From: a virus
Strand: one strand, 5' to 3'
DNA length: 64,000 nt
IMG/VR virus record: IMGVR_UViG_3300045988_133395
Under the pieces are notes generated by a model that saw only the letters and a program-made list of their open reading frames with translations, searched no databases and was not told the origin of the DNA. The position numbers and the translations under genes were made by a program. How positions within the stretch are numbered: the first letter of the stretch is position 1; each line of letters opens with the position of its first letter. Positions 3,505-24,973 of this stretch are shown here, piece by piece.

Positions 3505-6500
3505 TTGGCAAATTATGTTAAATTTAAACAAGGTTTAAAAAAGGACTTTAATACAACAAATCAGCCATTAACAAATGGTATGATTTATTTTGTTATAGAT
3601 GAAAATAATAATGGTTCTATATACTATGATACTATTGTTGATGGCAAACAAGCTACTAAAAATGGAGCTGTCCATAGAGTTAAATTTTCTGGTTTACCAA
3701 TTAAAATAACTGGTTCTGTAACAGGAACAGGAGTTATTTCTCAAGATGGTGAAACTATTGAAATAAATACATCAACTAATCACTCTCATGGATTAGCGCA
3801 TCAAGATTTTACTGTAACTTTATCAAATGATGATACTAATTTAAAATGGACAAGATTAGGAAACCAAAATGGGGAAGGCTTTTGGTTAAAATCTATTAAA
3901 GGAAATGTTAAAGCTCCAGCTTGGTTCCAACCTAATTATGGTACAGGTATTGCTTTCGGCGGTGGAAGTACAAAGGGTATTATATCTGTTAAATATAATG
4001 AACCCAGTATTAGATTTGCAGGAGGAAATGGTGATGCTCCAGTTTGGTATTTTACCATTACTGGTTCTAATGATAAATCCTATGATTTAAATAGGATTGG
4101 TGGTCATTCAAGTGATAGTGCAAAATTAGACCATAATATTACTTTTAAGATTGCTTCTACTGCTGATGCAACTAATGGCGCCAATGGCACTAAAACTGAT
4201 TTATCTGGTCCCGCAGTTAATTTATATTTGCCAACAAAAATATCTGGTTTTGATTTATTACAAGCATCAAGATTTCAAGGTAATGCAGATAGTGCAACAT
4301 ATGCCACTTCAGCAGGTTATGCAAAAGGATTATTCTTAAACCCAGAAACTCGTCAAGAGGATATGAACTTTAATTTGGCAGATGCTAAATATATAAAAAA
4401 AGTAACATATTCTATGGCAACCTCTACTACTAAGAAAAATAAACCTCCAATAGGAGACGCAAATATTCTTTCTTTTGGATGGGACAATTCTGGTTATGGT
4501 TCTCAGTTAGCAATTCAAAATAGTGGTGCTGGTCATTTAGCTGTTAGAGGTTCTGGCTCTACTAATGGAGCTTCATCTTGGGGTGAATGGAGTACCGTTT
4601 TAGATTCTTCCAACTATACCTCTTATATAAATAATTATTATTGGGCAAATGTAAAAGTATCTACTGCATCAAGTACGGAAACCAAACCAACATTTAATAC
4701 TGCTTATACTTCTAACTGGTGGCGTTCAACTGGCAAAACAGGATGGTGGAATGATACTTATAGTGGCGGTATTGCCATGGAAGATAAAACATATGTAAAA
4801 GTTGCTGGTAATAAGAGTTTCTTCATTCCAAATGGTTCTTTAAAAATTGGTGGTAATGGAGACATTTTCTTCGCTACTGGATATGATGATGCTACTTTAA
4901 AAATATATGGTCAGACTAATACTGATTTTGGTGCTGAAACCATTGTAATTCAAACTTGTTTTGATAATCGAGATCCACAAACATCAGAATATACAACTCA
5001 ATATGCGAATAGATGTAATTTATTATTGCAACCAAGAGGTGGACAAGTTTATATTGGTAAAAATTTAACTACTCCTGGAGATGTAGGATATAAATTATTG
5101 GTTGGTGGAAATCAATGGATTGAGGGTAATTTAGTGTTTAAAGGCGCTAAAGAAATTAAATTTATTGGTTCTAAACAAACTTATTCAATGATTCGTTTTA
5201 TTGATAATACCAGTGACAATTATGGAAATGGTATTTCTATTGGTGGTGGCGGTTCAACAGTTATTGGAGCTGGTGAATCTGCAATGTCTTATGTTACTAA
5301 TGGCGGAGATGAAAGATTATTCTTATTATCTGATGGCGCTATTAATATTGAGGCTGGCGGAGATACTATTTCAAATAGAAAAGGACTTCAAGTTACAAGT
5401 GATGGACATATTCTTCCTATTAAGGCAGAAAACAGTAATCCTAATGCCCAAGATTTAGGAAGTGCAGCTGATTATTGGAGAAATTTATATATAAATAATA
5501 TTACTTTACAAAGTCAAGTTGGGAATAGATTAGTTTGGACAAATGGAAGTAAAATACTCCAAGCAGGATACCATTATGCAGATACAGATAGAATTGCAAT
5601 TAATACAGCTGGACGACAAGGATATAATTTTTATGTAAATGGTTCTTCTTATTTTAGTAGTAATACTTATATCCATAGAAATTATTTTCTTAATAATCCT
5701 TCTACTGGGGCAGGTGAATTAATTCTTACTGCTTTAGGATATAAAAGTGCTGGATACCCAGTTTATAATGACCCAGAATTTGCGTCTGGTTCAAATAGTA
5801 TTTCTGTATATAATAATGCTGCTAATGGAACTGTTACTCATGCTATAGTAAGTGATGCTTCAAGCGGAAATTCATCTGGAAAAGTTTTAAAAATTACTCA
5901 TACAGGTTCAGGTTCTCCTGGTTTTGGAGGATTTGTTCAATATATCTCATCTCGTGCAAATGCTATTTTTATCCAAATTTTTAGAGCAAAAATTCCAACA
6001 GGAAGAAATGTTGCAACAGCTTCAAATAGTATGGGAGATAATTATAAAGATGAATGGCTAACTCCAACAACTGGAACAGGAAGATGGGAATGGTATGCAA
6101 GGCGTGTAATTTGTGGCGCAAGTGGCACATTTTCAACTGGCGGTCATGTTTATATTAAAGATGGAGTCGCTCCAACAGCTTCATCTCCATTAGTATGGTA
6201 TTTATCATATTGTAATGTTATTGATGTTACCAAAGGTAATTATGATGGATTAAGAACCAGATATTCAGACTTTGTAATATATGATTCTGGTGAAAATGGA
6301 AAAGATAATAAGACTCCTATTAATGATAAATATGTTGCTAAAATTGTTACAAAAACTTCAAATGGAACAACTTTTACTCTTAGAGGATTAAATGGTGCAG
6401 GTAATGAATTAGCTGATGCAGTTTTAACTATTCCAAATGCGGGAAGTGGAAAAGCCGGTCTTATCACTGATGCAGCGCAAACTATTTATGGAGAAAAAAC

Positions 6501-9500
6501 TTTAACCAGTAATCTTCGTTTTGCTAATGTTACTACTGGAACAAGAGGTATTGTAGGTACAATTGCAGATAATGATTATTGGCGAGTTGTAGGTTGTGCA
6601 GATAAAACTAATGAAGGTTATCTTGAAATCGCAACTGGTGATGACGCTAATGAACCTATTTACATGAGACAATATTCTGGGGTTTTTAAAACAGTAAAAA
6701 GAACTTTTACTATTTTAGATGGTTCTGGACGTTCTCGTGCGCCTGAATTATTTGAGGCTAAAAAGGTTCATGTTAATAGTAAATTAAATCAAAGCACTGC
6801 AATAGCAGATATAAGTTATCAATTTCAAGTTACTGGAACAAGTAATTTTACAGATACAGTAAATATATCTGGCGTCACAAATCATCATAATAATATTCAA
6901 ATCGATGCTAATTATAGTATTGCGAGACCAGGAAAAAATTCAGCTTGGTATGGTTCTCATAATAATGCTATGATTAGAATGACCAGTGTTAATGACTGGT
7001 CCCCTTTGTTAGCTCAAAAAGCGACTAATGGCTATTGGATTTTAGGTCATTATAATTATCATAATGAAAAGGATGAAAATGATAAAAATAGTGATTTTAG
7101 AGATCAATGGCTATTTGGATATTTAGCAAATAGTAATCTTGAAGGAACAACTGGTGCTTCAAATTCATTAACAACTACTTATAGATTATTAAATATTGGT
7201 GGAAATGATAATCAAAGAATGTTCGTTTCTGCAAAATATAATGCGGTAGTAGGGTCTGAAACTCAACCTGTTTATGTCCAAAGCAATGGTAATGTAGCTA
7301 CTTGTAGTTATAGTTTAAGTGCTACTATTGAGGCCGGAACCGCAAATAGAATGGCATATTATAAAGCAGCTAATCAAATTGGTTCTTCTGGTCATTATGT
7401 AACTTCAAGTCAAGTCGGAATTAATTCAAATACTACACATGATTTTACTTTTTATGTTGGTGGAAATAGTTATTTTTCTAATTTAGTAACTGTTTATGCA
7501 GGAAATAACTTAGGTGTAAAGATTGGTAATACTAATATCACTGCTATAGATGGTTCATTAATATTTCAAAATAATACTGCTTTAAGATTTGGTAGTAGTG
7601 AATGGGATTGGAATAAATGGGCTGGTTTAAAATATATTCCAGATAGTAAAACTATTGTAATGGGATTAGCAGATTCTACTAATTTTGTTGCTAATGCGGT
7701 TCAATCTGGTGGAACATTTTTATTTACTGGTATGTCATCTATTGACTTAAATAAAACTGCTTCAATTAAGAATCTTGCTATTGGAGGAGGTATTTATTGG
7801 AATCCATATGTAGAAAGTGCTGGAGATGGGTCGGATGCGGCCAGTATTACGGTTATTGCGCACGGAGCTGCAGATGGAACTGAATTAAGAATTCAACAAC
7901 AGAATGATGCAAATGATATTATTAATTTAGTTGTTAATAATTCAATTTTTCTTAATGGTAAAAGAGCTTTTAGACCTTATGATGGTTGGTTAAGAATTAA
8001 TGAAGATTCCAGTTTCGGCTATGGTATTTATACTGGATCAAGTTTAGTTAGAAGTGATAATCAACTTCAAGTTGGAGATAGTGGAAATAAATTTTATGCT
8101 AATTCAGCAGGAGACGGCTATTTTAGTAACGCTTTAGGTATCGCTGGAACTAACACTAATTACAGATTGTATGTAGATGGAAAAACTTGGTTAAGAGATG
8201 CTCTTTATATCGGTAGTGATACAAATGGTAAAAATAAGAATTATATTGCTTTTTATGGAACATATGGCGATGGCGAAGGTTATTTTAATCATACTTATAT
8301 TGGTGAAAATGTATTTAGCACTTCAGGAGAGTCATCTGAATTAGTATTATTTAAAGGAAATGATCAAGGTAGTAATGATACAGTTGAATCTATAACGGGT
8401 TCAGGTCCAGATAGAATTAGACATATTGCGGCGGGTCATTTATTCCAAGTATACAGAACTGCAATGTCAGGTAGTTTTAGTGATGTTTGTGCTTCAACAG
8501 CACCTTCAACTGTATTAGAAGTAAATGGTGGCGGATTATCTATTCATGGACAAAAAATTACTTTTACAACAACTAATTCTTCTGGTTCTTCAATTAACTC
8601 TATAGGTTCTGTTGTTAGAATTTATGGAAATACATATGGAAATGATGCAAATTATTTAATAAGTAAAACTGCAGGAGTATTTTCATATGGAGATGGTGGT
8701 CCACAAATTAGATTCGGTACAAATTATGCAGGTAACCAACAAGAAGGAGCTTTAATTTATACAGATCATAATAGTGCCGGAGCAGGAGTAAGTTGGCATT
8801 TTGTTTCTAATCAGTCTGATTGGAGTGTAAATTCTAAAAGATATGTAGCTCGAACCAGTGTAACTATTGGTAGTTTATTACCAAATACTTCATATGCATT
8901 ATATGTTGGCGGAGGAGAGTCATATTATACAAATCATATTAATATGCAGCAAAATGCTTCAATTCTTTTTCCTCAAGTGAATCAATTTTTAAGATGGACA
9001 TCATCTACTTCAAATAATAATTCTACGGGGCGCACTTGGTATGGAATAGGAACTTATCAAGCTGGAGATAGTTATAATTGGCTAAATATTTCTAACTATT
9101 GGGGAATTAATATTACGACCAAAGATGATACCCATTTACAGCATAATGGAAAAGTTCTTACTAATAGTGGAAATGCAACTGGAACAGTTGGTTCTTCTAC
9201 AAAACCTGTTTATTCTAATCAGGGTGTTTTAACACCTATTACTTCATATGAAGGTAATGCAGCAACAGCAACGAATGCAACTAATGCTAAGAATTCTGAT
9301 ACTGTTGACAATTACCACGCATCATCTTTTTTCATTCAGGATAGACTTGAGCCAACCAGTACAGCTGGAAATGATGGATTGTGGGGATTAACTGGAAATA
9401 GAAGCTTTCATGGCGCTTTACCAGAGGGTTTGTCAAATATATATCCATATGGTCAATTAATCTCTTTTTCAACTAATAATGCAGCAAGATTTCAAATTTA

Positions 9501-10605
9501 TGCTGCACACATGGGTTCAGTTGATTCAACTTTATCTTATAGAACTGGTTGGGGAACAGATAAAAGAGTATGGAGAACTTTTATTGATTCTGGTAATATT
9601 GGAAAACAATCTGTAAATTATGCTGCAAGCGCAGGAAATGCAGATACCGTAGATGGATATCATGCAGCTGATTTATTTTCTGGCGGATATAAAACAACAC
9701 TGGATTTATCTGCTTTAAATAATAATCTTTATTATCCTGTTACAGGAGCATCTATACCTGCCAATGGTTATCATAAAATTAAAGTTTCTGTACACCTTAA
9801 TTCTGGTACAAAACCATCTTGGGCTACGCATAACTCTGGTTTTACAACTAATGTAGAATTATATACTACTGCTTCTGGATGGGGCACAACACATGGTGAG
9901 ACTATTATTTTGAATGATAGTTATAATTTTACAAATTGTGGACAAGTTGTAGGTTTTACTCAAAATGGAAATACCAGTACGCCAGTTTTATGGTTAAGAG
10001 GTGGAGGAAAATATTTTGTAGAATGTGATTATCAGGCATCATGGACAATTAGAACTTCATTGTATTATACACAAGGAAGTTCCAGTGATACTTATCACCA
10101 GACTGTTGAACCTCAATCATCATATCCAGGATTTAAAGCTGGAGATGGTGGAGCTATTAATGGTGTTATTAGAGCTGGTCAAGTTTATGGGGCAGTATGG
10201 AATGACTATGCAGAATATCGTAAAACTAAAGAATATATTCAACCAGGTTATTGTGTCATTGAAACAGGAAAAGGAGATTTAATTAAATCTTCTGAAAGAT
10301 TACAGCCAGGAGCAAACATAGTATCTGATACTTTTGGATTTGCGATTGGTGAAACTGAACAAACTAAAACTCCACTTGCGGTCTCAGGTAGGGTATTAGC
10401 TTATCCTTATGAAGATAGAGATTTATATCAAGCTGGTGATCCAGTTTGTTCTGGACCTAATGGAACTATTTCAAAAATGACTCGTGAAGAAGTCAGAGAA
10501 TATCCAGAACGAATTATTGGTACAGTATCAGAGATTCCAAATTATGAAGTTTGGGGAACTGGTAATGTAAAAGTAAATAATCGTATTTGGATTAAAGTTA
10601 AATAG
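3505..10605 (+). CDS. giant tail fibre / tail spike protein (2366 aa)
   Basis: TTG start with AGGAGG RBS; Gly/Asn/Ser/Thr-rich beta-helix-like repeats (YVGGNSYFSN, YVNGSSYFSS, YVGGGESYYTN), duplicated motif N(A/S)DTVD(G/N)YHA(A/S)(D/S)(L/F)F, distinct C-terminal domain; size and composition typical of phage fibres. Confidence 0.75.
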   Translation: MANYVKFKQGLKKDFNTTNQPLTNGMIYFVIDENNNGSIYYDTIVDGKQATKNGAVHRVKFSGLPIKITGSVTGTGVISQDGETIEINTSTNHSHGLAHQDFTVTLSNDDTNLKWTRLGNQNGEGFWLKSIKGNVKAPAWFQPNYGTGIAFGGGSTKGIISVKYNEPSIRFAGGNGDAPVWYFTITGSNDKSYDLNRIGGHSSDSAKLDHNITFKIASTADATNGANGTKTDLSGPAVNLYLPTKISGFDLLQASRFQGNADSATYATSAGYAKGLFLNPETRQEDMNFNLADAKYIKKVTYSMATSTTKKNKPPIGDANILSFGWDNSGYGSQLAIQNSGAGHLAVRGSGSTNGASSWGEWSTVLDSSNYTSYINNYYWANVKVSTASSTETKPTFNTAYTSNWWRSTGKTGWWNDTYSGGIAMEDKTYVKVAGNKSFFIPNGSLKIGGNGDIFFATGYDDATLKIYGQTNTDFGAETIVIQTCFDNRDPQTSEYTTQYANRCNLLLQPRGGQVYIGKNLTTPGDVGYKLLVGGNQWIEGNLVFKGAKEIKFIGSKQTYSMIRFIDNTSDNYGNGISIGGGGSTVIGAGESAMSYVTNGGDERLFLLSDGAINIEAGGDTISNRKGLQVTSDGHILPIKAENSNPNAQDLGSAADYWRNLYINNITLQSQVGNRLVWTNGSKILQAGYHYADTDRIAINTAGRQGYNFYVNGSSYFSSNTYIHRNYFLNNPSTGAGELILTALGYKSAGYPVYNDPEFASGSNSISVYNNAANGTVTHAIVSDASSGNSSGKVLKITHTGSGSPGFGGFVQYISSRANAIFIQIFRAKIPTGRNVATASNSMGDNYKDEWLTPTTGTGRWEWYARRVICGASGTFSTGGHVYIKDGVAPTASSPLVWYLSYCNVIDVTKGNYDGLRTRYSDFVIYDSGENGKDNKTPINDKYVAKIVTKTSNGTTFTLRGLNGAGNELADAVLTIPNAGSGKAGLITDAAQTIYGEKTLTSNLRFANVTTGTRGIVGTIADNDYWRVVGCADKTNEGYLEIATGDDANEPIYMRQYSGVFKTVKRTFTILDGSGRSRAPELFEAKKVHVNSKLNQSTAIADISYQFQVTGTSNFTDTVNISGVTNHHNNIQIDANYSIARPGKNSAWYGSHNNAMIRMTSVNDWSPLLAQKATNGYWILGHYNYHNEKDENDKNSDFRDQWLFGYLANSNLEGTTGASNSLTTTYRLLNIGGNDNQRMFVSAKYNAVVGSETQPVYVQSNGNVATCSYSLSATIEAGTANRMAYYKAANQIGSSGHYVTSSQVGINSNTTHDFTFYVGGNSYFSNLVTVYAGNNLGVKIGNTNITAIDGSLIFQNNTALRFGSSEWDWNKWAGLKYIPDSKTIVMGLADSTNFVANAVQSGGTFLFTGMSSIDLNKTASIKNLAIGGGIYWNPYVESAGDGSDAASITVIAHGAADGTELRIQQQNDANDIINLVVNNSIFLNGKRAFRPYDGWLRINEDSSFGYGIYTGSSLVRSDNQLQVGDSGNKFYANSAGDGYFSNALGIAGTNTNYRLYVDGKTWLRDALYIGSDTNGKNKNYIAFYGTYGDGEGYFNHTYIGENVFSTSGESSELVLFKGNDQGSNDTVESITGSGPDRIRHIAAGHLFQVYRTAMSGSFSDVCASTAPSTVLEVNGGGLSIHGQKITFTTTNSSGSSINSIGSVVRIYGNTYGNDANYLISKTAGVFSYGDGGPQIRFGTNYAGNQQEGALIYTDHNSAGAGVSWHFVSNQSDWSVNSKRYVARTSVTIGSLLPNTSYALYVGGGESYYTNHINMQQNASILFPQVNQFLRWTSSTSNNNSTGRTWYGIGTYQAGDSYNWLNISNYWGINITTKDDTHLQHNGKVLTNSGNATGTVGSSTKPVYSNQGVLTPITSYEGNAATATNATNAKNSDTVDNYHASSFFIQDRLEPTSTAGNDGLWGLTGNRSFHGALPEGLSNIYPYGQLISFSTNNAARFQIYAAHMGSVDSTLSYRTGWGTDKRVWRTFIDSGNIGKQSVNYAASAGNADTVDGYHAADLFSGGYKTTLDLSALNNNLYYPVTGASIPANGYHKIKVSVHLNSGTKPSWATHNSGFTTNVELYTTASGWGTTHGETIILNDSYNFTNCGQVVGFTQNGNTSTPVLWLRGGGKYFVECDYQASWTIRTSLYYTQGSSSDTYHQTVEPQSSYPGFKAGDGGAINGVIRAGQVYGAVWNDYAEYRKTKEYIQPGYCVIETGKGDLIKSSERLQPGANIVSDTFGFAIGETEQTKTPLAVSGRVLAYPYEDRDLYQAGDPVCSGPNGTISKMTREEVREYPERIIGTVSEIPNYEVWGTGNVKVNNRIWIKVK

Positions 10606-10616
10606 GAGGAATAATT

Positions 10617-11027
10617 ATGGAAAATTTCTTACAAATGTTATCACAAATTTTTGAGGTATGCGTAATTCCATTATTAGGAATTTTAACAGCTTACTTAGTA
10701 CAGTATATCGCAACAAAAAAAGATGCTTTAATTAAGCAGAATGATAATGCTTTAGCAGCAAAATATATCACAATGTTATCAAAGACAATTACTGATTGTG
10801 TAATTGCCACAAATCAAACATATGTAGATAGCTTAAAAGCCCAAGGAAAATTCGATGCCGAAGCTCAGAAAAAGGCATTTAACATGACCTTAACTGCAGT
10901 TCTTTCTATTTTGAATGACGAAGCGAAAGAATACTTGACAGCAATCTATGGCGATTTAAATACATACATTACAAAACAAATTGAAGCGGCTGTTAATAAA
11001 AATAAGACAACTATTGAACCTAAATAA
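10617..11027 (+). CDS. hypothetical protein with N-terminal transmembrane helix
   Basis: 136-aa ORF, GGAGG RBS; hydrophobic segment VCVIPLLGILTAYLVQYIA. Confidence 0.45.
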   Translation: MENFLQMLSQIFEVCVIPLLGILTAYLVQYIATKKDALIKQNDNALAAKYITMLSKTITDCVIATNQTYVDSLKAQGKFDAEAQKKAFNMTLTAVLSILNDEAKEYLTAIYGDLNTYITKQIEAAVNKNKTTIEPK

Positions 11028-13677: not shown

Positions 13678-13990
13678 AATTAATGGGGATAATTGGCGAG
13701 TCGTCTTTGTATCCCCATATCACCCAATGCTTAAAAAGAAAGATGGCTCTTATACTCTTGGAGCTTGCGTTGATGATACAAAGAAAATTTATATTAATAA
13801 TAAACTTTCTCTCGAAAAAGTTAAACAAGTTTTATGCCATGAAATAACACACGCCGCAATGTTTAGTTATGATATTCAATTAACCTATGACCAAGAGGAG
13901 CTATTAGCCGATTTACTCGCTACTTATGGACAAGAGATAATTGATATAACTAATAAGATTTTTTCTAAGATAAAAAATAATAGGGGATAG
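13670..13990 (+). CDS. small HExxH zinc-metallopeptidase-like protein (SprT/zincin-like)
   Basis: 106-aa ORF containing VLCHEITHAAMF (HExxH followed by AA, SprT-like signature). Confidence 0.4.
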   Translation: MFKINGDNWRVVFVSPYHPMLKKKDGSYTLGACVDDTKKIYINNKLSLEKVKQVLCHEITHAAMFSYDIQLTYDQEELLADLLATYGQEIIDITNKIFSKIKNNRG

Positions 13991-14018
13991 AATTTAATTC
14001 TATCCCCTCTTTTTTATT
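13980..14018. terminator. bidirectional rho-independent terminator between convergent modules
   Basis: aggggatagaatt|taattctatcccct palindrome with T-runs on both strands; separates + structural block from - block. Confidence 0.65.
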
Positions 14019-14598
14019 CTTCTTTTGGACGTTGGTCTTCTGCAAATCCAGCTTCGACTTTCTTTTTTACTAATGAAAATAAATGGTCGCCTTTATGATT
14101 ACCACCTAACCCATTATAAGCCATATGGTCTTTATCTAATTCTTCCCATTCATCAAGAGTAATAACATGATCTTCAGCTAAAAGTTTTCTACAATTATTT
14201 CTAAATTCTTTTCCTTGCATTGATAAAACGCCTGCGGTCAAAGCTGTAATATTTTTTTCTAATGCTGAAATTTCTTTTTCAAGAACCGCATCATCAGATT
14301 TAGATTCTTCCCGACCCGCTTCTAAAGCTTGATCAACCTTGGTATTAATTTCATCATACTTATCTTCAGAATTTTGATTCATCTTATCATGTTCTTTTTC
14401 TAAAGATTTTAATACCTGTTGATTTTCACTTTGAATTTTTTTAAGCACATTATCAAAGTATTCTTTTTGTTCTCTTTGACGTTCTTCTTTTTCAAGTCTT
14501 AAATAACGTTTTATGATAAAACCGCCGCCAGTTACAATTAAACCTAAAATAAGCTCAACCCAATACTTTAAGACAATTGATCCAATTGTTTCCAGCAT
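14014..14598 (-). CDS. membrane-anchored coiled-coil protein
   Basis: 194-aa ORF; N-terminal TM helix ILGLIVTGGGFII then Glu/Lys-rich heptad region. Confidence 0.5.
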   Translation of the reverse strand: MLETIGSIVLKYWVELILGLIVTGGGFIIKRYLRLEKEERQREQKEYFDNVLKKIQSENQQVLKSLEKEHDKMNQNSEDKYDEINTKVDQALEAGREESKSDDAVLEKEISALEKNITALTAGVLSMQGKEFRNNCRKLLAEDHVITLDEWEELDKDHMAYNGLGGNHKGDHLFSLVKKKVEAGFAEDQRPKEE

Positions 14599-14668
14599 AG
14601 TTAAAAACCCTCCTCATTTTTCAAACTTTCTCTCTACAAATTTTAAAAAATAAGAAGGGGTTATTCTA

Positions 14669-15685
14669 TTAGAATGGCCAACTCATAGTACATTCATTTG
14701 CATATACTCCATTATCAGCTTCTAATGAAGCATCAGTTCTTTTTACCATGTCCAAATAAAATTGAGAATTTGGATTGTTAAAGAATATTCCTGGTACGTA
14801 TGAAGATTTACTTACAATAACTGGAATATATTCTGGTTTAAATAAATAATATAAATAATTAGAAAAAATATCCGCGCTCGGCAATGTTCTTCCTTCAAAT
14901 TTAAAATATTTATATCCCATACTATTATACTTTTGGATATCTTCCCAGGTTAAGTTATTCTGTTTTCCAAGAGTATCAGGGTCATTAATACCACCTTGAA
15001 TTTGACATTTTGTAGTAATACTATATTTATGTTTACCATATGTCAAATTAGTTTTACTTGTATCGAGATAATGTAATTTTCTAACAGGACAATGGCTATG
15101 ACAAATTGCATTTGATAAAAACTCACATTTACCTCGTAACTCTTGAGGAATATTTTCAAGCATATCCATATCTTTATTTAAGTTATAGTCCAAACAAACT
15201 TGATAATAGTCTGGATTTTGGAGTTCTTTAAGAAAGTTTTCTTTGTTTAAACATTTAGTTGTAGAACTAATATATTTAAAGTCTGGATAATTTTCTCTTA
15301 AATACTGTTCCAAAAGAGGAGAATTTACAACAACCTCATTATTGCCATCTTCAAGTAATCTCATTTGAAGATTACAGAATGGGTCATATATATCTTCTTC
15401 CTCAATTGCGGAATTGGTAAAAATTAATCTCATAGGAATATTATAGAACTTATAAAAATCTCTAATTTTTTCAATTTCTTCCTTTGTGACCTGGCGATAA
15501 AATGGAAAGTTTCTGCCGCCGTCCCAAGTACAAAATGGAAAGTTGCCAAAGAAGGTTCCAATTTTAATTCCATCTCTAAAGTATTCAGGATTTGTGTCAC
15601 GCAATTCCAAAATAAATTTATTTAAAGTAAAGTGTTCGTAAAATCCGGATAAATTATAATAAATCATTTTTAAGCCCTCTCTCAA
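14669..15685 (-). CDS. Cys-rich protein of unknown function, paralog of next gene (rSAM-locus accessory protein)
   Basis: 338-aa ORF; GNFPFCTWDGG and CEFLSNAICHSHC clusters; shares GNFP...C..GG segment with 15654..16445; translationally coupled. Confidence 0.5.
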   Translation of the reverse strand: MREGLKMIYYNLSGFYEHFTLNKFILELRDTNPEYFRDGIKIGTFFGNFPFCTWDGGRNFPFYRQVTKEEIEKIRDFYKFYNIPMRLIFTNSAIEEEDIYDPFCNLQMRLLEDGNNEVVVNSPLLEQYLRENYPDFKYISSTTKCLNKENFLKELQNPDYYQVCLDYNLNKDMDMLENIPQELRGKCEFLSNAICHSHCPVRKLHYLDTSKTNLTYGKHKYSITTKCQIQGGINDPDTLGKQNNLTWEDIQKYNSMGYKYFKFEGRTLPSADIFSNYLYYLFKPEYIPVIVSKSSYVPGIFFNNPNSQFYLDMVKRTDASLEADNGVYANECTMSWPF

Positions 15686-16445
15686 ATAAATTAATCATCA
15701 ATGTATAGCTTTCATTTGAATCTTCTGGAATAATGTCATCAAACATAACATATGAGAAATCTTTTGGAATACTTCTATACTCTTCAAAGAATTCATCATC
15801 GTCTTTATAAAATCTTTTAGCACAATTTCTAAAAGTAGAATGACCACTATATTCAAGTATATAATGAGATTCTTCAGATAAACAATCGCAATAATTTACA
15901 CAATCTCTACATTTTGTAAAACTCATTAAGTAAATCTTTTGTACACCTTTTACTTTTAAATGAGCGTAACGTCTTGGTAGGATTATATATTTGATATTTT
16001 TACAATTATCAATCTTATCTTGAATCTCTTTTAAATTATATCTCAATAAAGCATTTTGATGCAATGCAATTTGAATATTAGGATAACGTTTTACTACATA
16101 ATCAATCAAGTTAAAATCTGCAATCTCATAGTATGCAGAATTATTATTTTCCCATTCTTCAAATAATATCTTATCAAAACGATTTAGATATTCTTTCTCA
16201 TTAAGGAAGAGGTTGCCGCAGTCAACAAATAACATCTTAGATGGTATTGAATAACTATTTACACAACCTATAATATCATCATACAGTGCAAAATATCTGG
16301 TGTCTAAGGCATTAATCCCACCGCACATAATGTTAGATGGGAAATTGCCCTCGATACCTTTGATTTTTACTGTATTGCTATACATATCTAAAATATTAAC
16401 ATTATCTTCAAAATTATAATAAATAGATGGCAATATAAAAATCAT
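15654..16445 (-). CDS. Cys-rich protein of unknown function (rSAM-locus accessory protein)
   Basis: 263-aa ORF; EGNFPSNIMCGG and CRDCVNYCDC cluster; 32-nt overlap with downstream gene. Confidence 0.5.
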   Translation of the reverse strand: MIFILPSIYYNFEDNVNILDMYSNTVKIKGIEGNFPSNIMCGGINALDTRYFALYDDIIGCVNSYSIPSKMLFVDCGNLFLNEKEYLNRFDKILFEEWENNNSAYYEIADFNLIDYVVKRYPNIQIALHQNALLRYNLKEIQDKIDNCKNIKYIILPRRYAHLKVKGVQKIYLMSFTKCRDCVNYCDCLSEESHYILEYSGHSTFRNCAKRFYKDDDEFFEEYRSIPKDFSYVMFDDIIPEDSNESYTLMINLFERGLKNDLL

Positions 16446-16477
16446 TTACTATACTCCTTTTACTCTTTACTTCTTTA

Positions 16478-17152
16478 TTATTTTACATAAAGAAGGTCTA
16501 CCTTACTCTCAATATTTTTTTCTATATCTAATATTTCATTGTCTGTTGGATATTCTTGAATACTATAAAACAAATGATAAATACTATATTGGAATCTATC
16601 CCATTCTGCGGCTGTTAAGAACTTTTTATAATCAACTACAGAATTTCCAATGCAAATTCCATATAAAACATTATCTTGGAACAAACTGAAATCATCAAAA
16701 TAAGTTGCATTTAAAAGATAAATATACTTATTCATATTAGATAAAACATCATCTTTATAATCTGTATATCTTAGTTCTGGAGCATATTCTTTTAATAGGA
16801 CTAAAAACAACTTATTCAAGCACATTTCTTCAATCGTATTTTCATCTTCATCAAAGAAGCCTTCAACAGTAGTATTTTTAATTCGCTTTATTAAATCATT
16901 ATTAGACAAAATAATAAAGTTTTTTATATGAGTAAAATGCTCTCTTTCTTTATCATCAAGCATAAAATAATAGATATAATAAACTTTTAATCTGACTGAC
17001 TCAAGTACATCATCCGCAGTATTAAGTTTACCAAGTCTGAAATCTAACTCATCTATTAATACAAATTGTTTCTTAAACATAATATCTTGAGTTAAATCAA
17101 AAATAGAAACTTCATCAGTCATACAAGTATCTGTTGATAATATCTCTTGCAT
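16478..17152 (-). CDS. hypothetical protein in rSAM operon
   Basis: 224-aa ORF overlapping start of upstream rSAM gene by 38 nt. Confidence 0.45.
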   Translation of the reverse strand: MQEILSTDTCMTDEVSIFDLTQDIMFKKQFVLIDELDFRLGKLNTADDVLESVRLKVYYIYYFMLDDKEREHFTHIKNFIILSNNDLIKRIKNTTVEGFFDEDENTIEEMCLNKLFLVLLKEYAPELRYTDYKDDVLSNMNKYIYLLNATYFDDFSLFQDNVLYGICIGNSVVDYKKFLTAAEWDRFQYSIYHLFYSIQEYPTDNEILDIEKNIESKVDLLYVK

Positions 17153-18509
17153 ATTTTATAAACTCCCTTCTTTCTTTTGGAATTTTCAAATCATTTAGAA
17201 TAATATCATAAACGCCATATTTTTCAGCTATATCATTAACAGTACGATATTTAGTTTTAAACATTTCACATACTTCATCAATAGCACAGAAAAGTTCTTT
17301 TCTATCTTCATATTGCGCTCCTAAACAACCTTTCATACAGAAGCTTTTAATAGGACAGCCTGCACATTTCATAAAAGAACGATTTTGATTAAGAGTCTTA
17401 ATTTTATATGCAAGCATAGGATTTTCTCCACGAACTCCAATAATCTTAGTTTTATTTTCATTTAATTCAAGAAAACCATAAACTTTATCAGGATAACAAG
17501 TTCTATGACAAGGTACAACTGCTAAGTCTCCGACTCTAAAAATTGAACCGCCTTGAATTGAACATGGCAACTTATGTTGAATTTCTGGAAGAGCTAAAGT
17601 ATATGGCTGTACATGATTATATCTTCCAATATTCATCATTCCATCAGAAAAGTTATCTGCCATATGATATGCAAAATCTGTTAAATCTCCATTATGAAGC
17701 GTATTTAAGTCTTTCTCTGCCACATAAAAAAGGAAATCTCTATAATCCTTTAAAGATTCTTCATCCCACTGTTCCGCATTTCTGACCTCTAACATCATTG
17801 GAATTGAATATACTTCACATCCATTTTCCTTCTTAAAGATAACATTATATTTAATAATATTATCAATCCACCAATCATAATTACGTTTATAATTCTTTAC
17901 AAATTCTCTTGTAATCATAGGGTGGCAAGAAAGAGAATACTTTGCAATAAATTTGAAAAACTTATCATAAAATTCGTCTTGCTTTGTTTGACCGTTTCTA
18001 AGTCCTCTTTCAACAGATTCTAACTCTGTTGGTCCATCTACTGAAGCACTTAACCAAAAGCCATTGAAATGTTTTACATCATCTCTGACTCTATTCATCC
18101 AATATTCAACTCTTGCGGTCTTTTCATCATCCATAAGGAAAGACATATTTGTAGGAATAACAAAATCTCTTCTTGGGATATTAGGAGTATTCATTTGATG
18201 CTCGTAAAAAACATTTAGAATTTCTTCCCAATAAGGGATTTGAAAAAACTCACCTGAAAAAATATCAAAAGTTGTATATTTATAATGATTTTCATCAAGC
18301 CAGTCTAATAACAATGCTAAATTTCTAAGAATATTTTCCTTCTTATTGGCTTCTGGAGGATACATTTCATCGCCATGTCTATATAAATAACAATATTCAC
18401 ATTTTTGATTACATATAGATGTAATAATAAATTCAACAGAATTTTCATCTTTATCATATCGTAGTAAATAATTTTTTAAAAGTAAATCTTGCTGTTCTTG
18501 AAATGTCAT
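17115..18509 (-). CDS. radical SAM/SPASM-domain enzyme (anSME-like), paralog 2
   Basis: CNQKCEYC (CX3CX2C) at N-terminus, IFSGEFF (GGE-type SAM motif), SASVDGPTELESVERG (anSME-like), C-terminal Cys clusters CSIQGG...PCHRTC and CAGCPIKSFCMKGC (SPASM). Confidence 0.8.
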   Translation of the reverse strand: MTFQEQQDLLLKNYLLRYDKDENSVEFIITSICNQKCEYCYLYRHGDEMYPPEANKKENILRNLALLLDWLDENHYKYTTFDIFSGEFFQIPYWEEILNVFYEHQMNTPNIPRRDFVIPTNMSFLMDDEKTARVEYWMNRVRDDVKHFNGFWLSASVDGPTELESVERGLRNGQTKQDEFYDKFFKFIAKYSLSCHPMITREFVKNYKRNYDWWIDNIIKYNVIFKKENGCEVYSIPMMLEVRNAEQWDEESLKDYRDFLFYVAEKDLNTLHNGDLTDFAYHMADNFSDGMMNIGRYNHVQPYTLALPEIQHKLPCSIQGGSIFRVGDLAVVPCHRTCYPDKVYGFLELNENKTKIIGVRGENPMLAYKIKTLNQNRSFMKCAGCPIKSFCMKGCLGAQYEDRKELFCAIDEVCEMFKTKYRTVNDIAEKYGVYDIILNDLKIPKERREFIKYARDIINRYLYD

Positions 18510-19930
18510 ACAATACCTCTTTCCGCCATTATTCTGTCAATTTCTTCTTCAACTACATCCATAGCTCCATTATACCACAATGGAATCTCTAATGGATTTG
18601 ATGTTATCCAAGAGCCAGTAATAATATATGAGTCTTGTAAACAACATGATTTATCAACAAAAATAGCAATCGTTTTATCAATTTTGCTCATATCAGTCCA
18701 TTTCTCATCAATGATACCTGCTTTTGCATATTCATATACAAACTTAACATAATCTGTATAAAAGATTTGATGCGGATATAAGATAAGATTATCGAAAGTC
18801 TTTTTAAGATTTAAGAACTGGTCTTTATCATAAATCCAAGCTGATTCATTATTTGTTTGAACGTATTTTGCGGCAAGTCCATTCATATCAGCATGGTCTT
18901 TCATATTATTATGATAATCTACATAATCATCAAACATGCCTCTATGACACATAGTATATTTTCCATCATGAATAGGAACTACTACATGGGAAAATGAACC
19001 GCACCCTCCGCCGCAGAATGGCTTTGAACAATCTAAGCATTTTTTCTTATTAAATGAATTATCATCTCGTAATCTGCCTAATAAGAACTCTACACTTGGA
19101 ATATATGTTTCATAATTTGGAATCCATCCATCTAATTGTTTGATTTTTGGAGTCACCTCTTGGATTGAACGATAAATCTTTGCAACTTCAAGTCCATCCT
19201 CTTTTGTCCATTCTGCTGGAGTTGCATAATTGAAAAGACATGGTAAGAAACACCATTTTCGAGTTTTTCTGTTTTTATAAGGCTGATACATTTCTCTATC
19301 AAAAAATTCAAACCATTCATATGCTTTTTCTGGTGTATCTACAAAATGAAATGTAGGTTTTGAAAAAGTTGGTTTAGTATGAACATATAAATCAATTTTA
19401 GAATCATCAAATTCTAATTCACATAAATCTCTAAAATTCTTTAAGAATCTTTGAGTAACGCCTTTACCTCTTCCCAAATCATTCATCTCTTCAGGCCCAT
19501 CAATTGAGACCTGAAGATCAAAATGAAATTTTTGATTACCATGATAATGTTTAATAATTGTATCAAACAATCTCTTTAAAGATTCAACTTGGTTTGGAAG
19601 AGTAAAATTTGTTGAAGTATCTAATTCATTAAAGTTTGGAAAAGCCTCGACATATTCTTCAAAATGGTCTATAAAACGTTCTATATGAAGAAAAGGTTCT
19701 CCGCCCCATAAAGTAATATGCTTAATGTGTTTATCTGCTTCTGGATCAACATCATAGACTTGTTTAATTTGACTTCCATTTTCAAAATCTTTAGCCAAAT
19801 CATCATCTATTTGTTTTAAACATCCAGTAGCATCTTTACAAATATAACAGTACCCGCAATTAAGGTTACATAAAGCAGTAGTAAATAAAGTTATATTTGT
19901 AAAGTAAATCTTTTCATTATTTTCTATCAT
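18506..19930 (-). CDS. radical SAM/SPASM-domain enzyme (anSME-like), paralog 1
   Basis: CNLNCGYC (CX3CX2C), LWGGEPFL, VSIDGPEEMNDLGRG, C-terminal CLDCSKPFCGGGCGSF...CHRG SPASM cysteines; ATGA overlap with next gene. Confidence 0.8.
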   Translation of the reverse strand: MIENNEKIYFTNITLFTTALCNLNCGYCYICKDATGCLKQIDDDLAKDFENGSQIKQVYDVDPEADKHIKHITLWGGEPFLHIERFIDHFEEYVEAFPNFNELDTSTNFTLPNQVESLKRLFDTIIKHYHGNQKFHFDLQVSIDGPEEMNDLGRGKGVTQRFLKNFRDLCELEFDDSKIDLYVHTKPTFSKPTFHFVDTPEKAYEWFEFFDREMYQPYKNRKTRKWCFLPCLFNYATPAEWTKEDGLEVAKIYRSIQEVTPKIKQLDGWIPNYETYIPSVEFLLGRLRDDNSFNKKKCLDCSKPFCGGGCGSFSHVVVPIHDGKYTMCHRGMFDDYVDYHNNMKDHADMNGLAAKYVQTNNESAWIYDKDQFLNLKKTFDNLILYPHQIFYTDYVKFVYEYAKAGIIDEKWTDMSKIDKTIAIFVDKSCCLQDSYIITGSWITSNPLEIPLWYNGAMDVVEEEIDRIMAERGIV

Positions 19931-19961
19931 TAATAACTCCTTTTACTCTTTTAAAATATAT

Positions 19962-21203
19962 TTAAAAATCAACGCCTTCTACGGTATAGCTACTATGAAC
20001 TACAAAGCATCGTTTATCAACATTGCTAAAGTTACCAGTATTAACAGAATTAAAATTACTGCTATTTACACCAGCGAAATTGCTCGGACAAGTATTTACA
20101 CTGGAATCATTTGTACTAAAATTACTTGGACAATTTGAGGTAAAGAAACCTGTATATCCAGTAGCATTTCCAGAATAATTAGAAGCATTATCTCCTACAC
20201 ATTGAGTACCAACACTGGAAAAACGAGAAGAATTATTTCCAGAACAGTTAATTGTATGGCCTGTATAGTTAGTATCATTATTTGCAGTATATCCGCCTTT
20301 ATGGAAAGAACTTCTTTTAGCATTATTAACAGTAGTTCTATTAGTGCTATTTTTTCCATTTCCAGAATATTTAGAAGCATTATGTCCCTGGAAATTACCT
20401 CTTTTAATGGCATTACCTGATAACTGGACATCTTTACTTCCATTACCAGCCCAGTTAAATGTCCAATAGGAGTAATGATGATGATATTTTCCAGTTTGGA
20501 ATCCACTATGATTACCATTATGAACTTTTGAAAATTTAGAACTATTACTTCCAAAAGAATTAAAATCTGCGCCATTATTAGTTGCCCATTTAGTACTAAA
20601 AAATCCACTATTAAAAGTATGATGATGCCCACTTCTAAAAGCGTTATTATAGCCGCTTCTATTAGAAGCATTATTACTACTTCGATTAGATGCAAAATAA
20701 CCATTTCTAAAGCCACCAAAATAACCACTTCTATTAGAATCATGACCAATTTCATTAAAACTGGTATTATTAGAGGTTCTATGTACGCCATTATGTCCAG
20801 ATCTATTAGCACTAAAGCTACCAAAACCACTATAATTAGAACTATTAAAACCTCCACGATGACTTGAAAAATGTTCTCGACAAGCTTGTTCCATCATTCC
20901 AATGCTTTTTTCAATTTGAGCCATGGATTTTTTTCCAATTGCGGGAGTACCTTGATTAACTCCAACAGGAACTAAGATTGAAACACCATTTACGAATGAA
21001 ACAGTATTTTTTGTATCTACAACACTTTTAAAAATCTCATTCATAATTTGAGCGCTGGTGATTCTAACACCACCACCAACGCTTCCTCGATTAGAAATAG
21101 CAGAATATCTACCATTCCAAGTTCTAATAGCATCCAATCTATCATAATAATCCTTAATAGTAGAGGCTTGAATTGGCTGACCTGTATATACTATTCTTGC
21201 CAT
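19962..21203 (-). CDS. Ser/Asn/Gly/Phe-rich low-complexity repeat protein, putative substrate of adjacent rSAM enzymes
   Basis: 413-aa ORF with GAGAGGTGA RBS; ~110-aa ordinary N-terminal domain then ~300 aa of degenerate repeats (SNRSGY, FNSGFF, NRSGH...) with many aromatic-X-Ser/Asn triads and five C-terminal Cys each followed by N/D within 3-4 residues (CSGNN, CVGDN, CPSNF x2). Confidence 0.55.
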   Translation of the reverse strand: MARIVYTGQPIQASTIKDYYDRLDAIRTWNGRYSAISNRGSVGGGVRITSAQIMNEIFKSVVDTKNTVSFVNGVSILVPVGVNQGTPAIGKKSMAQIEKSIGMMEQACREHFSSHRGGFNSSNYSGFGSFSANRSGHNGVHRTSNNTSFNEIGHDSNRSGYFGGFRNGYFASNRSSNNASNRSGYNNAFRSGHHHTFNSGFFSTKWATNNGADFNSFGSNSSKFSKVHNGNHSGFQTGKYHHHYSYWTFNWAGNGSKDVQLSGNAIKRGNFQGHNASKYSGNGKNSTNRTTVNNAKRSSFHKGGYTANNDTNYTGHTINCSGNNSSRFSSVGTQCVGDNASNYSGNATGYTGFFTSNCPSNFSTNDSSVNTCPSNFAGVNSSNFNSVNTGNFSNVDKRCFVVHSSYTVEGVDF

Positions 21204-21217
21204 TCAATCACCTCTCT

Positions 21218-21592
21218 TTAAAGTCTTGGATTTGTTTGAAAAGAAATATCTATATAATATTCTGGTGTTTCAGCGGTTTGGTCATAATCTCCTTTTGCAT
21301 TTGAGATAGATGTATATTTAGTAGTTTCAAAAACAACTTTTTCTCCATCTTTAATAGTTATATTCTTAATAGAATTATCAACTCTAAAATATGGAAGAAA
21401 GTCTACTAAACTGATATTATCAAAAGTATTTATATTTTCACCATTATCTGCGGAAATATAAGTAGTAATATATAAAGCCGCTGTAGTTTCTTTCTTACCA
21501 GAATTATCTGGTAATTCTTTTAACTCTAAGCCTTCTGTAAAGCTTTTAATATGGCATTGTAATTCGCCATTATTTATAATTAAAGTGTACAT
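21218..21592 (-). CDS. hypothetical protein
   Basis: 124-aa ORF ending 14 nt before repeat-protein gene. Confidence 0.45.
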   Translation of the reverse strand: MYTLIINNGELQCHIKSFTEGLELKELPDNSGKKETTAALYITTYISADNGENINTFDNISLVDFLPYFRVDNSIKNITIKDGEKVVFETTKYTSISNAKGDYDQTAETPEYYIDISFQTNPRL

Positions 21593-23814: not shown

Positions 23815-24312
23815 TCAATAATCAGTTCCCTTATATAAAATTCGTTGATTAGATGAACCTCTCATAAATAAAGAAACATCTCTTTTTGTTTTATCATAAG
23901 GACCGTCAATAAGGCAATCTACTTGTTCAAGTATTGATTTAATTCTATTATTATTCATATCTAAATCTTCTAAACAATATCCTGTCCATAAATAAATTTT
24001 AGTGTCAGGAAGTTTTTCTTTAACAGAATTAATAATTAAATTAGTCAAAAATTGATTTTCTGGACAAAGAGGTTCTCCTCCCATAATACATAAATTACGG
24101 TGTAATCCATTAGCAGTAATAGCTTCAATAACCTCTAAAATAGTATCATGAGTAACTTCTTCTCCACCTTCAAAATCCCAAGTCTCTGGATTATGGCAAC
24201 CCTCACATCTGTGAGGGCAACCTTGTGTAAAAAAAGTTACACTTGTTCCAGGAGCGGCAGAAAAATCATTTTTAATAATTCCTGCATAACGCATTATAAT
24301 TATTCCTCCCAA
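23815..24312 (-). CDS. nrdG: anaerobic ribonucleotide reductase activating protein (radical SAM)
   Basis: GCPHRCEGCHNPETW CX3CX2C motif in NrdG-typical context; ~165 aa; adjacent to nrdD. Confidence 0.8.
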   Translation of the reverse strand: MGGIIIMRYAGIIKNDFSAAPGTSVTFFTQGCPHRCEGCHNPETWDFEGGEEVTHDTILEVIEAITANGLHRNLCIMGGEPLCPENQFLTNLIINSVKEKLPDTKIYLWTGYCLEDLDMNNNRIKSILEQVDCLIDGPYDKTKRDVSLFMRGSSNQRILYKGTDY

Positions 24313-24497
24313 TTAAAAAGCTTGCGGCCGCAGATAGGGCAGTATTTAATATGTCTAATATATTCAAATCCTATTCCGCCATCCCAGTCGTTTGCCATAT
24401 ATAAAGTATCATCTGCATCTAATTCTCTACAATATCTACATTCTTCTGCTTGTTTTAAGTATTCTTCTTTGTCGTGCCAGGTTTTATCTGCGCCCAT
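24300..24497 (-). CDS. small zinc-ribbon protein (possible)
   Basis: 65-aa ORF with CRYC...CPIC; overlaps nrdD 3' end by 43 nt. Confidence 0.3.
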   Translation of the reverse strand: MGADKTWHDKEEYLKQAEECRYCRELDADDTLYMANDWDGGIGFEYIRHIKYCPICGRKLFNWEE

Positions 24498-24973
24498 TCT
24501 CTTTTTCCTCCATGCTTAACACGATGTTCAACTTCATCTTGCTTACCAAGATTAAAAGCAGTTTTATAATTTCCTGTTAAATATCCAGTAACTCTTCTAA
24601 GCTGTTGGATATGAGTGCTTCCACAGATAGGACATCTATCATTAAATTCATCTGTGTATCCGCACTCAAGACATGTGTCGTTTGGTACATTAACTGCAAA
24701 ATATGGAATGTCTTTATCCATAGCATAATTTACAATTTGCTCTAATGCTTCAAGATTATTTTTAATACCAGAATCTAATTCAACATAAGTAATACATCCC
24801 GCAGATGAATAACCAGTTAATTGAGATTCAATATCAATCTTTTCAAATGGAGACATTTCTTTCCAAACTGGAACATGAATTGAATTAGTAAAGAATTCTT
24901 TATCACTTACATTTTCAATTACTCCATATTTTGCTTTAAAGTTTTTTAAAGCTTTATAGCAAAGGTTTTCGGC
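24455..24973 (-). CDS. nrdD: anaerobic ribonucleoside-triphosphate reductase, exon 2 (C-terminal part)
   Basis: AENLCYK at start, Zn site CLECGY...CPICG, glycyl-radical motif RVTGYLTG. Confidence 0.8.
   Translation of the reverse strand, partial: AENLCYKALKNFKAKYGVIENVSDKEFFTNSIHVPVWKEMSPFEKIDIESQLTGYSSAGCITYVELDSGIKNNLEALEQIVNYAMDKDIPYFAVNVPNDTCLECGYTDEFNDRCPICGSTHIQQLRRVTGYLTGNYKTAFNLGKQDEVEHRVKHGGKREWAQIKPGTTKKNT

Follow-up and report, generated by a model that had tools for sequence, protein, structure and literature searches.

The 64,000-nucleotide segment of IMG/VR record IMGVR_UViG_3300045988_133395 (the window; positions are counted from its first letter) is part of the genome of a large, gut-type phage of low GC content (~31%) and encodes two adjacent radical S-adenosylmethionine (SAM) proteins, rSAM-A and rSAM-B (A and B below), on its minus strand. 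We propose that this pair matures an adjoining repeat protein, RepP, a reading to which we give a probability of roughly 0.55. Both genes form part of a larger phage operon that had not been described before and whose best reading is an oxygen-independent maturation system of the ribosomally made, post-translationally modified peptide (RiPP) type, here in phages. What is known of radical SAM/SPASM maturases comes almost wholly from peptide natural products of bacteria and from a small number of protein cofactors; among the relatives that we recovered, this pair is almost entirely phage-borne. It is kept across differing genetic codes and is tied to a previously undescribed, large repeat-protein family, often in tail modules. 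The genes at the centre of the analysis are:

19962..21203 (-): RepP, whole; repeat protein adjoining A, proposed substrate
20880..21203 (-): RepP N-terminal domain (N-domain), residues 1-108, with a conserved Cys108 at its end (MEQAC); candidate recognition or anchoring module
19962..20879 (-): RepP repeat region, residues 109-413, final motif YTVEGVDF; proposed substrate
18506..19930 (-): rSAM-A, 474 amino acids (aa); C21-x3-C25-x2-C28, WGGEP; C-terminal domain twitch-like with three invariant Cys
17115..18509 (-): rSAM-B, 464 aa; C33-x3-C37-x2-C40; SPASM domain with seven invariant C-terminal Cys
16478..17152 (-): ORF224, rich in Leu, Asp, Ile, Glu and Lys; 38-nt overlap of its start with the end of B; candidate accessory protein or partner that presents the substrate
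15654..16445 (-): ORF263, U32-like paralog of ORF338, with which it clusters by BLASTP; Cys-rich segment CRDCVNYCDC...C
14669..15685 (-): ORF338, U32-family TIM-barrel protein; conserved C187, C195-x3-C199 and C227

Synteny of the radical SAM pair with repeat proteins

Gene structure, domain types, conserved Cys patterns and the synteny with repeat proteins and tail genes were all observed directly. A first-pass annotation had described A and B as tandem anSME-like genes of about 470 aa overlapping by 4 nt; it passed over the remainder of the operon, ORF224 and the U32-like pair. Both open reading frames (ORFs), their lengths, the overlap and all of the motifs that it quoted are present in the sequence and translations. 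A contains CNLNCGYC, WGGEP and VSIDGPEEMNDLGRG, and B contains CNQKCEYC, FSGEF and ASVDGPTELESVERG. The junction reads gtATGAcat, with the TGA stop of A overlapping the ATG of B, and an AAGGAG Shine-Dalgarno sequence lies 5' of A.

Relatives were drawn from a collection of 5.8 billion proteins, which yielded 116 for A and 107 for B, nearly all metagenomic and none specifically named. Scanning IMG/VR with a degenerate pattern gave 78 loci. In about 31 distinct viral loci, on contigs of 9-200 kb, a B homolog (28-61% identity) comes next after one of A (23-52%); in three of these, one or two small genes separate the two. The recurrence of A-then-B, at 23-35% identity, together with the conserved families, is more than chance. 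Many in-frame TAG codons are found in both radical SAM genes of L015, L016, L019, L020, L022, L033, L042 and L046, and many in-frame TGA codons in those of L040 and L041, so the cassette spans phages with standard and recoded genetic codes. A pattern scan of one genome per species (185,579 species) found at least two full-length relatives among the matches listed; one of these sits on a contig that also bears an amidase and looks prophage-like. Against 50,697 GenBank phage records the cassette had no megablast match, A had one partial match at 30% identity and B had none. We found no description of this cassette in the literature on phage-encoded radical SAM/SPASM systems tied to repeat or tail proteins.

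Two observations concern individual loci. The 162-kb phage contig IMGVR_UViG_3300045988_177309 carries three separate A-B pairs (one in L030, two in L047), so the system is present in several copies in some phages. In L004, L008, L011 and L012, rSAM-A seemed to contain an insertion; this was rejected, as it came from joined tblastn pieces, and the gene is 1422 nt long in all four.

To compare gene neighbourhoods, ORFs were called with the genetic code of each phage and 750 proteins from 31 loci were clustered. One or two low-complexity proteins of 100-474 aa lie directly upstream of A and sometimes after B. They are rich in Ser, Thr, Asn and Asp (S/T/N/D), have few aliphatic residues, and contain in addition either many aromatic residues or many Cys. 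Recognised repeat-protein families adjoin the pair in 24 of the 31 loci, and the gene order is repeat-A-B or repeat-repeat-A-B in most. Proteins classed as low-complexity by a composition criterion made up 26 of 196 within three genes of the pair versus 9 of 489 in the comparison group (odds ratio 8.2, p 1e-8). The earlier idea that the pair acts on the neighbouring repeat protein gains strong comparative support from these adjoining genes.

RepP has no match in Pfam, NCBIfam or PHROGs. Its repeat region is 44% S/T/N/D, 20% F/Y/W/H, 12% G and 6% I/L/V/M, and in L013 and L018 the gene just upstream of A encodes a homolog of RepP. jackhmmer linked the N-domains of repeat-protein clusters 30, 17, 100 and 72; a comparison with the short N-domain of cluster 2 gave an hhalign probability of 78%, with the boundary Cys aligned. 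This Cys ends the N-domain in nearly all of the repeat proteins (MEQAC in the window, KDNLAC or DDMNYC elsewhere). The domain is rare, with 19 genuine matches in 1.84 billion representative proteins, each of them N-terminal and followed by repeats.

The repeats themselves have a characteristic spacing. When 30 repeat proteins were pooled, aromatic residues recurred at i+4 (z 7.6) and i+8 (z 10) and were depleted at i+2 (z -10) and i+6 (z -7), and S/T/N/D residues were enriched two positions to either side of the aromatics (z 6.5-7). RepP of the window shows a significant aromatic period (z = 4.4) with mixed F/Y/H/W units. The repeat protein of L044 is a near-perfect (S-H-x-S)n, and true S-H-x-S repeats occur only there. 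Repeat proteins of the window lineage (window 19962-19990 (-); P0348-P0361) end in a conserved (F/Y)-x-V-E-G-(I/L/V)-D-(F).

Position relative to tail genes varies among the phages. L018 has the cassette directly after a 1787-aa homolog of the window's giant tail protein (listed below). In L049 and L045 a tape-measure protein (PF10145, 113 bits) lies two genes upstream of it and large DUF2341-type proteins follow it; PHROG searches of the tail-module neighbours of the cassette in L049 returned nothing. In the smaller phages, then, the tail module contains the cassette.

Enzyme families of the cassette

Family profiles were built from 41 A-type and 34 B-type sequences. On the Pfam Radical_SAM model (PF04055, gathering score 29.5 bits) A passes with 32.6 bits and B falls just under with 25.7, and precomputed PF04055 matches are present on several B relatives. 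Pairwise alignment, which the first-pass annotation had proposed as a check, gave 23% identity across the N-terminal 158 aa (BLASTP, E 2e-6). The two family profiles align over 284 columns, from CX3CX2C through a shared C...C-H-R element, with 97.9% hhalign probability. A and B are thus homologous, yet form two ancient and distinct families. The paralogy that had been proposed holds; a recent tandem duplication is not supported.

Invariant Cys in family B are C33/C37/C40 together with C316, C334, C382, C385, C391, C395 and C414. rSAM-B matches the seven-Cys SPASM signature (CX9-15GX4C ... CX2CX5CX3C ... C); the CX2CX5CX3C spacing is exact, and the first SPASM Cys pair is spaced by 17 residues, a little above the textbook range. 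In family A the only invariant Cys are C21/C25/C28 plus C310, C328 and C430. There is no conserved CX2CX5CX3C, and the Cys of the A segment CLDCSKPFC (297, 300, 305) are not conserved across the family. By hhalign, C310 and C328 of A align with C316 and C334 of B, the first SPASM pair; the three conserved Cys surround a predicted beta-hairpin at residues 316-326. Since only these three are kept and two of them match the first SPASM pair of B, rSAM-A looks twitch-type, with at most one auxiliary cluster predicted. Two C-terminal Cys clusters and a SPASM domain had been expected in both proteins; the expectation is borne out for B and not for A. Searching with SPASM/twitch models, also proposed earlier, included TIGR04085 (SPASM, cut-off 27 bits). 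Window B scored 17.6 bits at residues 330-407, below the cut-off, and A had no match; 20 of the 34 B-family members matched (E <= 1e-3; best 5e-7).

Neither protein is an orthologue of anSME, and both miss every curated family cut-off roughly ten-fold. The anSME equivalog model TIGR03942 (cut-off 349) gave 29.1 bits for A and 18.6 for B, against the earlier use of "anSME-type" as a family name. The V-S-I-DGP segment on which that name drew is a general trait of this radical SAM branch and not diagnostic of anSME; the SxDG columns are invariant in the alignments of both families. With every curated cut-off missed by so much, "anSME-like" is fair as a description of the fold and wrong as a family assignment. 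On HxsB (TIGR03978, cut-off 370) and HxsC (TIGR03977, cut-off 268), A scored 22.8 and 19.4 bits, and B scored 20.3 on HxsB. Models of YhhB (NF041707), XyeB (TIGR04496), GrrM (TIGR04261) and FxsB (TIGR04269), with cut-offs of 310-450, gave 36.7, 21.1, 20.5 and 19.9 bits for A and at most 20.8 for B. Thioether maturase models have cut-offs of 340-453; B scored 21.9 on PapB (NF047865), 27.5 on QhpD (TIGR03906) and 15.6 on SCIFF (TIGR03974), and A reached 46.4 and 30.5 bits on models of this group. NF033640 matched only the N-terminal core of A, with 45.4 bits against a cut-off of 170. Identity as a glycyl-radical activase was rejected, NrdG being a separate 165-aa gene (23815-24312).

Family-level comparisons reach further than these single-sequence scores. 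The B-family profile matches CteB among PDB sequences (5wgg, E 3e-10, SPASM region included) and also TigE and ChlB; ChlB is the only match of the A-family profile. The fold of A is nearest to ChlB, anSME, CteB and TigE, with a clear gap to the remaining structures; EpeE is also among the neighbours. The commonest NCBIfam models are PapB (32/34), QhpD (31/34) and the SPASM domain (20/34) in the B family, and DynA, YhhB, PapB and the N-terminal-twitch model in the A family. One rSAM-B homolog, P0330, is 809 aa long and has Hint and LAGLIDADG Pfam domains, which indicate a probable intein inserted in the enzyme.

The U32-like pair ORF263/ORF338 follows the cassette in the window lineage and in about ten loci. 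ORF338 is 40-53% identical in loci whose A is only 25-50% identical. Its AlphaFold2 model (pLDDT 90.6) has the U32 peptidase Mk0906 (5d88) as its top Foldseek match in the PDB (E 3e-8, probability 1.0). Columns C195, C199 and C227 (ORF338 numbering) are invariant in the joint ORF338/ORF263 alignment. Window ORF338 and ORF263 themselves have no Pfam U32 match. Peptidase_U32 (PF01136) matches 15 of 36 relatives, with a best E of 6e-6; P0118 and P0122 carry it. The family profile matched only a designed protein among PDB sequences (E 0.03). UbiU/UbiV is a heterodimer of two adjacent paralogs that performs oxygen-free hydroxylation, and UbiV and most U32 families bind [4Fe-4S] through CX12CX3C or CX15CX3-4C motifs (PMC6747719). 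ORF263 and ORF338 resemble UbiU/UbiV, RlhA and TrhP in being adjacent U32-fold paralogs with a conserved C-x3-C pair in an anaerobic setting; they differ in having no UbiT partner and no quinone or RNA context, as well as in the weak Pfam signal. By analogy, ORF338 is a candidate subunit of an Fe-S, oxygen-independent hydroxylase. We know of no described protein substrate for a U32 hydroxylase.

Proposed maturation of RepP and competing explanations

We infer which protein is the substrate, how A and B share the work, what chemistry they perform and what part the product plays in the virion. If the pair matures RepP, the CX3CX2C-bound [4Fe-4S] cluster of each enzyme would cleave SAM, and the 5'-deoxyadenosyl radical so formed would abstract a hydrogen from one of the repeat region's side chains. 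B may make a Cys-derived cross-link, which is plausible because B has a full SPASM domain and resembles the thioether formers CteB, PapB and QhpD; the boundary Cys between N-domain and repeats is the obvious candidate. Many repeat proteins have a single conserved Cys, so any thioether would be a single link and not a ladder. A may act repeatedly on aromatic-x-polar-x units, for example by making aromatic-to-C-beta cross-links. This is suggested because ChlB, its nearest solved structure, acts on aromatic-X-X motifs, which suits the period-4 repeats. ORF224 would present the substrate, much as HxsD does for HxsC, and ORF263/ORF338 might add a further oxygen-independent oxidation, a hydroxylation, in this lineage. 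The product would probably be a protease-resistant, tail-associated protein. We rate each of the specific chemistries, and the virion role, as less likely than maturation of RepP by the pair as such. We hold only tentatively, and as clearly the weaker proposition, the full picture in which phages of anaerobic habitats use two radical SAM enzymes to cross-link a repeat protein of their own tail region, with hydroxylation by the U32 pair in some lineages, into a hardened or adhesive fibre.

HxsB and HxsC are radical SAM enzymes that, with HxsD, mature the HxS-repeat effector HxsA of an anti-phage system (PMC13128918). HxsABCD is the closest architecture, but the phage system is not a member of it. 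Each combines a pair of distinct radical SAM genes with one for a small partner and one for a protein carrying short repeats, of the His/Ser type in HxsABCD. A whole protein is matured (as proposed here) and not a short peptide, and the phage relative L044 has near-perfect S-H-x-S repeats. The differences are in sequence and setting: phage A and B score 19-23 bits on the HxsB and HxsC models versus 370 and 268; the HxsC model has 292 positions and B has 464 aa; HxsA carries a signal peptide and a peptidoglycan-binding domain and RepP carries neither; HXS is a bacterial defence against phage, whereas this cassette is carried by phages, often in tail modules; and the U32-like pair has no HXS counterpart. 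HxsC, to our knowledge, lacks a SPASM domain.

ChlB is a triceptide synthase that makes aromatic-to-C-beta cross-links on aromatic-X-X motifs (PMC11499958). The triceptide synthases (ChlB, YhhB, XyeB, GrrM/OscB) resemble the proposed system in that their substrates carry multiple aromatic-X-X motifs, and the phage repeats have an aromatic at each fourth position and, in the pooled set, S/T/N/D at +2. Identity to the phage enzymes is about 17%, with scores of 21-37 bits against cut-offs of 310-450. The phage substrates would be proteins of 100-470 aa, not short peptides, and would carry as many as about 60 aromatic sites; the Cys-rich repeat families do not fit the motif. A keeps only three auxiliary Cys; the three-residue cyclophane-forming enzymes known to us have full SPASM domains.

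The thioether maturases CteB (SCIFF), PapB (ranthipeptides) and QhpD share the full seven-Cys SPASM domain with rSAM-B. The alignment with CteB spans both the core and SPASM, and PapB and QhpD are the models matched by most B-family members. Window B reaches only 22-27 bits on these models against 340-453, and it has no N-terminal RiPP recognition element (RRE). In QhpD there is a precedent for the cross-linking of a folded subunit, QhpC.

Several observations weigh against maturation of RepP by the pair, or against parts of the proposal. Five to seven loci have no recognisable adjoining repeat protein (L021, L028, L031, L035, L039 and also L092). Synteny is the one line of evidence that assigns the substrate, and the virion role of RepP is read only from neighbouring genes. 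Repeat regions are heterogeneous: the Cys-rich families (clusters 17, 52 and 72) have no period-4 aromatics, and the S/T/N/D enrichment at +2 is not significant in window RepP (z = 0.1). Searches of Pfam, NCBIfam and PHROGs detected no N-terminal RRE domain in A or B and no family match for ORF224, which also has no detectable RRE or HxsD similarity. The likeness to ChlB and to CteB/PapB is weak (12-17% identity) and does not discriminate between chemistries; similarities at this level would not separate cross-linking from epimerisation or Ser oxidation.

The nearest competitor keeps the enzymes and the substrate and changes the destination of the product. RepP would then be no part of the virion but a giant RiPP-like precursor or effector with the N-domain as its leader, acting inside or outside the cell as a superinfection-exclusion or anti-defence factor, like the HXS effector, or as a bacteriocin like sublancin. 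The architecture does parallel HxsABCD (two radical SAM enzymes, small partner, repeat protein; PMC13128918), and true S-H-x-S repeats are found in one relative. The window cassette stands at the end of the replication-strand operon and not among the plus-strand tail genes, and the window DNA polymerase is SPbeta-like. SPbeta encodes the RiPP sublancin. Set against this, RepP has no signal peptide and no protease or transporter gene lies nearby; the putative cores, at 50-365 aa, are far above any known RiPP; the cassette of small phages lies between the tape-measure protein and large tail proteins; and PADLOC models gave only generic viperin-core matches and no defence system. We regard a non-virion product as doubtful, though the most credible of the competing explanations.

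We consider it unlikely that the pair acts on something other than RepP, be it a small molecule, a sugar, a nucleotide or a host protein, as BtrN and MoaA, both twitch enzymes, do or in the way of an auxiliary metabolic gene, with the repeat proteins being tail fibres that neighbour it by chance. A has three conserved auxiliary Cys only, and MoaA-type sites have three auxiliary Cys and bind substrate. In several loci no repeat protein can be recognised; proteins rich in Ser/Thr are commonly glycosylated, and a radical SAM-glycosyltransferase fusion lies near the L015 cassette. Yet the top four structural neighbours of A all modify peptides or proteins, the NCBIfam models matched by most members are all peptide maturases (the generic viperin core aside), and the window cassette contains no sugar or nucleotide pathway genes. 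The tight repeat-A-B order is moreover kept in phages that otherwise share almost nothing, with the enrichment given above. Least probable of all, in our estimate, is true anSME chemistry, in which Ser or Cys of the repeats would be oxidised to formylglycine, an aldehyde that could condense into cross-links. The repeats are very Ser-rich, several relatives are named "sulfatase maturation enzyme AslB" by Joint Genome Institute pipelines, and A and B share the CX3CX2C motif, GGE-type motif and SxDG segment with anSME. Against it stand the TIGR03942 scores far under the cut-off, a likeness no better than that to ChlB or CteB, and the lack in A of the second auxiliary cluster that anSME has. anSME also requires a C/S-x-P-x-R motif; the cassette has no such motif and no sulfatase gene as a source of substrate.

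The full picture of a cross-linked and, in some lineages, hydroxylated tail-region fibre, if true, would bring the first radical SAM-matured protein of a virion, a RiPP-type maturase substrate larger than any known and the first protein substrate of Fe-S U32 enzymes. There is a substantial chance that this is the first radical SAM maturation of a phage tail-region protein. Should the link hold, radical chemistry would gain a new role in the anoxic gut, in the biology of virions or of phage effectors, and the cassette would mirror the HXS anti-phage system lately described in bacteria. Enzymes able to work on dozens of positions in a single protein could also be useful for stapling peptides and proteins. 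The co-encoded U32 pair offers a handle on whether prephenate-dependent U32 hydroxylases act on proteins.

Other operon genes and genomic setting

The remaining features of the operon and of the converging plus-strand module are:

21218..21592 (-): ORF124, small gene directly upstream of RepP; cassette membership uncertain
14014..14598 (-): ORF194, membrane-anchored coiled-coil protein, last gene before the terminator; system membership unclear
13982..14008 (.): bidirectional hairpin terminator (stem 12 bp) at which the minus-strand operon and the plus-strand module converging on it both end
10617..11027 (+): holin (phrog_13712)
3505..10605 (+): tail protein, 2366 aa (phrog_5911, E 2e-41)

Genes of the window operon are tightly packed, with overlaps of 4-38 nt, those other than the A-B overlap being 32-38 nt long, and end at the strong terminator. 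The sole site predicted by a terminator scan of the minus strand from 14008 to 21592 is a weak one near 19000 within rSAM-A, with a stem of 5 bp. In 28 loci the 3' end of B is overlapped or adjoined by an ORF of 79-233 aa. ORF224, that ORF in the window, is a positional counterpart of HxsD and a candidate substrate-presenting partner. These small ORFs evolve too quickly to be joined in a single family: clusters 41 and 48 were the only ones linked by jackhmmer and hhalign, and ORF224 stayed unlinked to cluster 4. At the position of ORF124, an ORF of 100-125 aa is present in the window, L013, L015, L018, L022 and L024; homologs of ORF124 are detectable only in L018 and close relatives, and it has no family match. 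ORF194 has homologs at different positions in L013 and L018, and its PHROG matches are weak and of unassigned function.

The cassette of the TAG-recoded locus L015 (1-7000, 13005-14012) is flanked by a YcaO protein, two glycine-rich ALK_LTK_GRD-domain proteins, the radical SAM-glycosyltransferase fusion mentioned above and an aldo-keto-reductase with ferredoxin motifs. These are candidates for further protein-modification genes.

The minus strand of the window also encodes the anaerobic ribonucleotide reductase NrdD/NrdG, a dUTPase, a RuvC-like protein, an SPbeta/YorL-type DNA polymerase and a topoisomerase. NrdD and NrdG on the strand of the cassette mark an anaerobic setting. The DNA polymerase (28789-31380 (-)) shares about 41% identity with YorL of Bacillus phage SPbeta and with polymerases from large Enterococcus phages, a likeness that points to a Bacillota host. 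The nrdD gene is split exactly at position 414/415 of the Pfam NRDD profile into ORFs at 25903-27741 and 24455-24976 (-). Rfam found no RNA family in the window and no intron model match in the nrdD gap. Between the two halves (region 24455-27741 (-)) lies an HNH_3 endonuclease ORF at 25140-25745, and the interruption looks like an intron or other mobile insertion.

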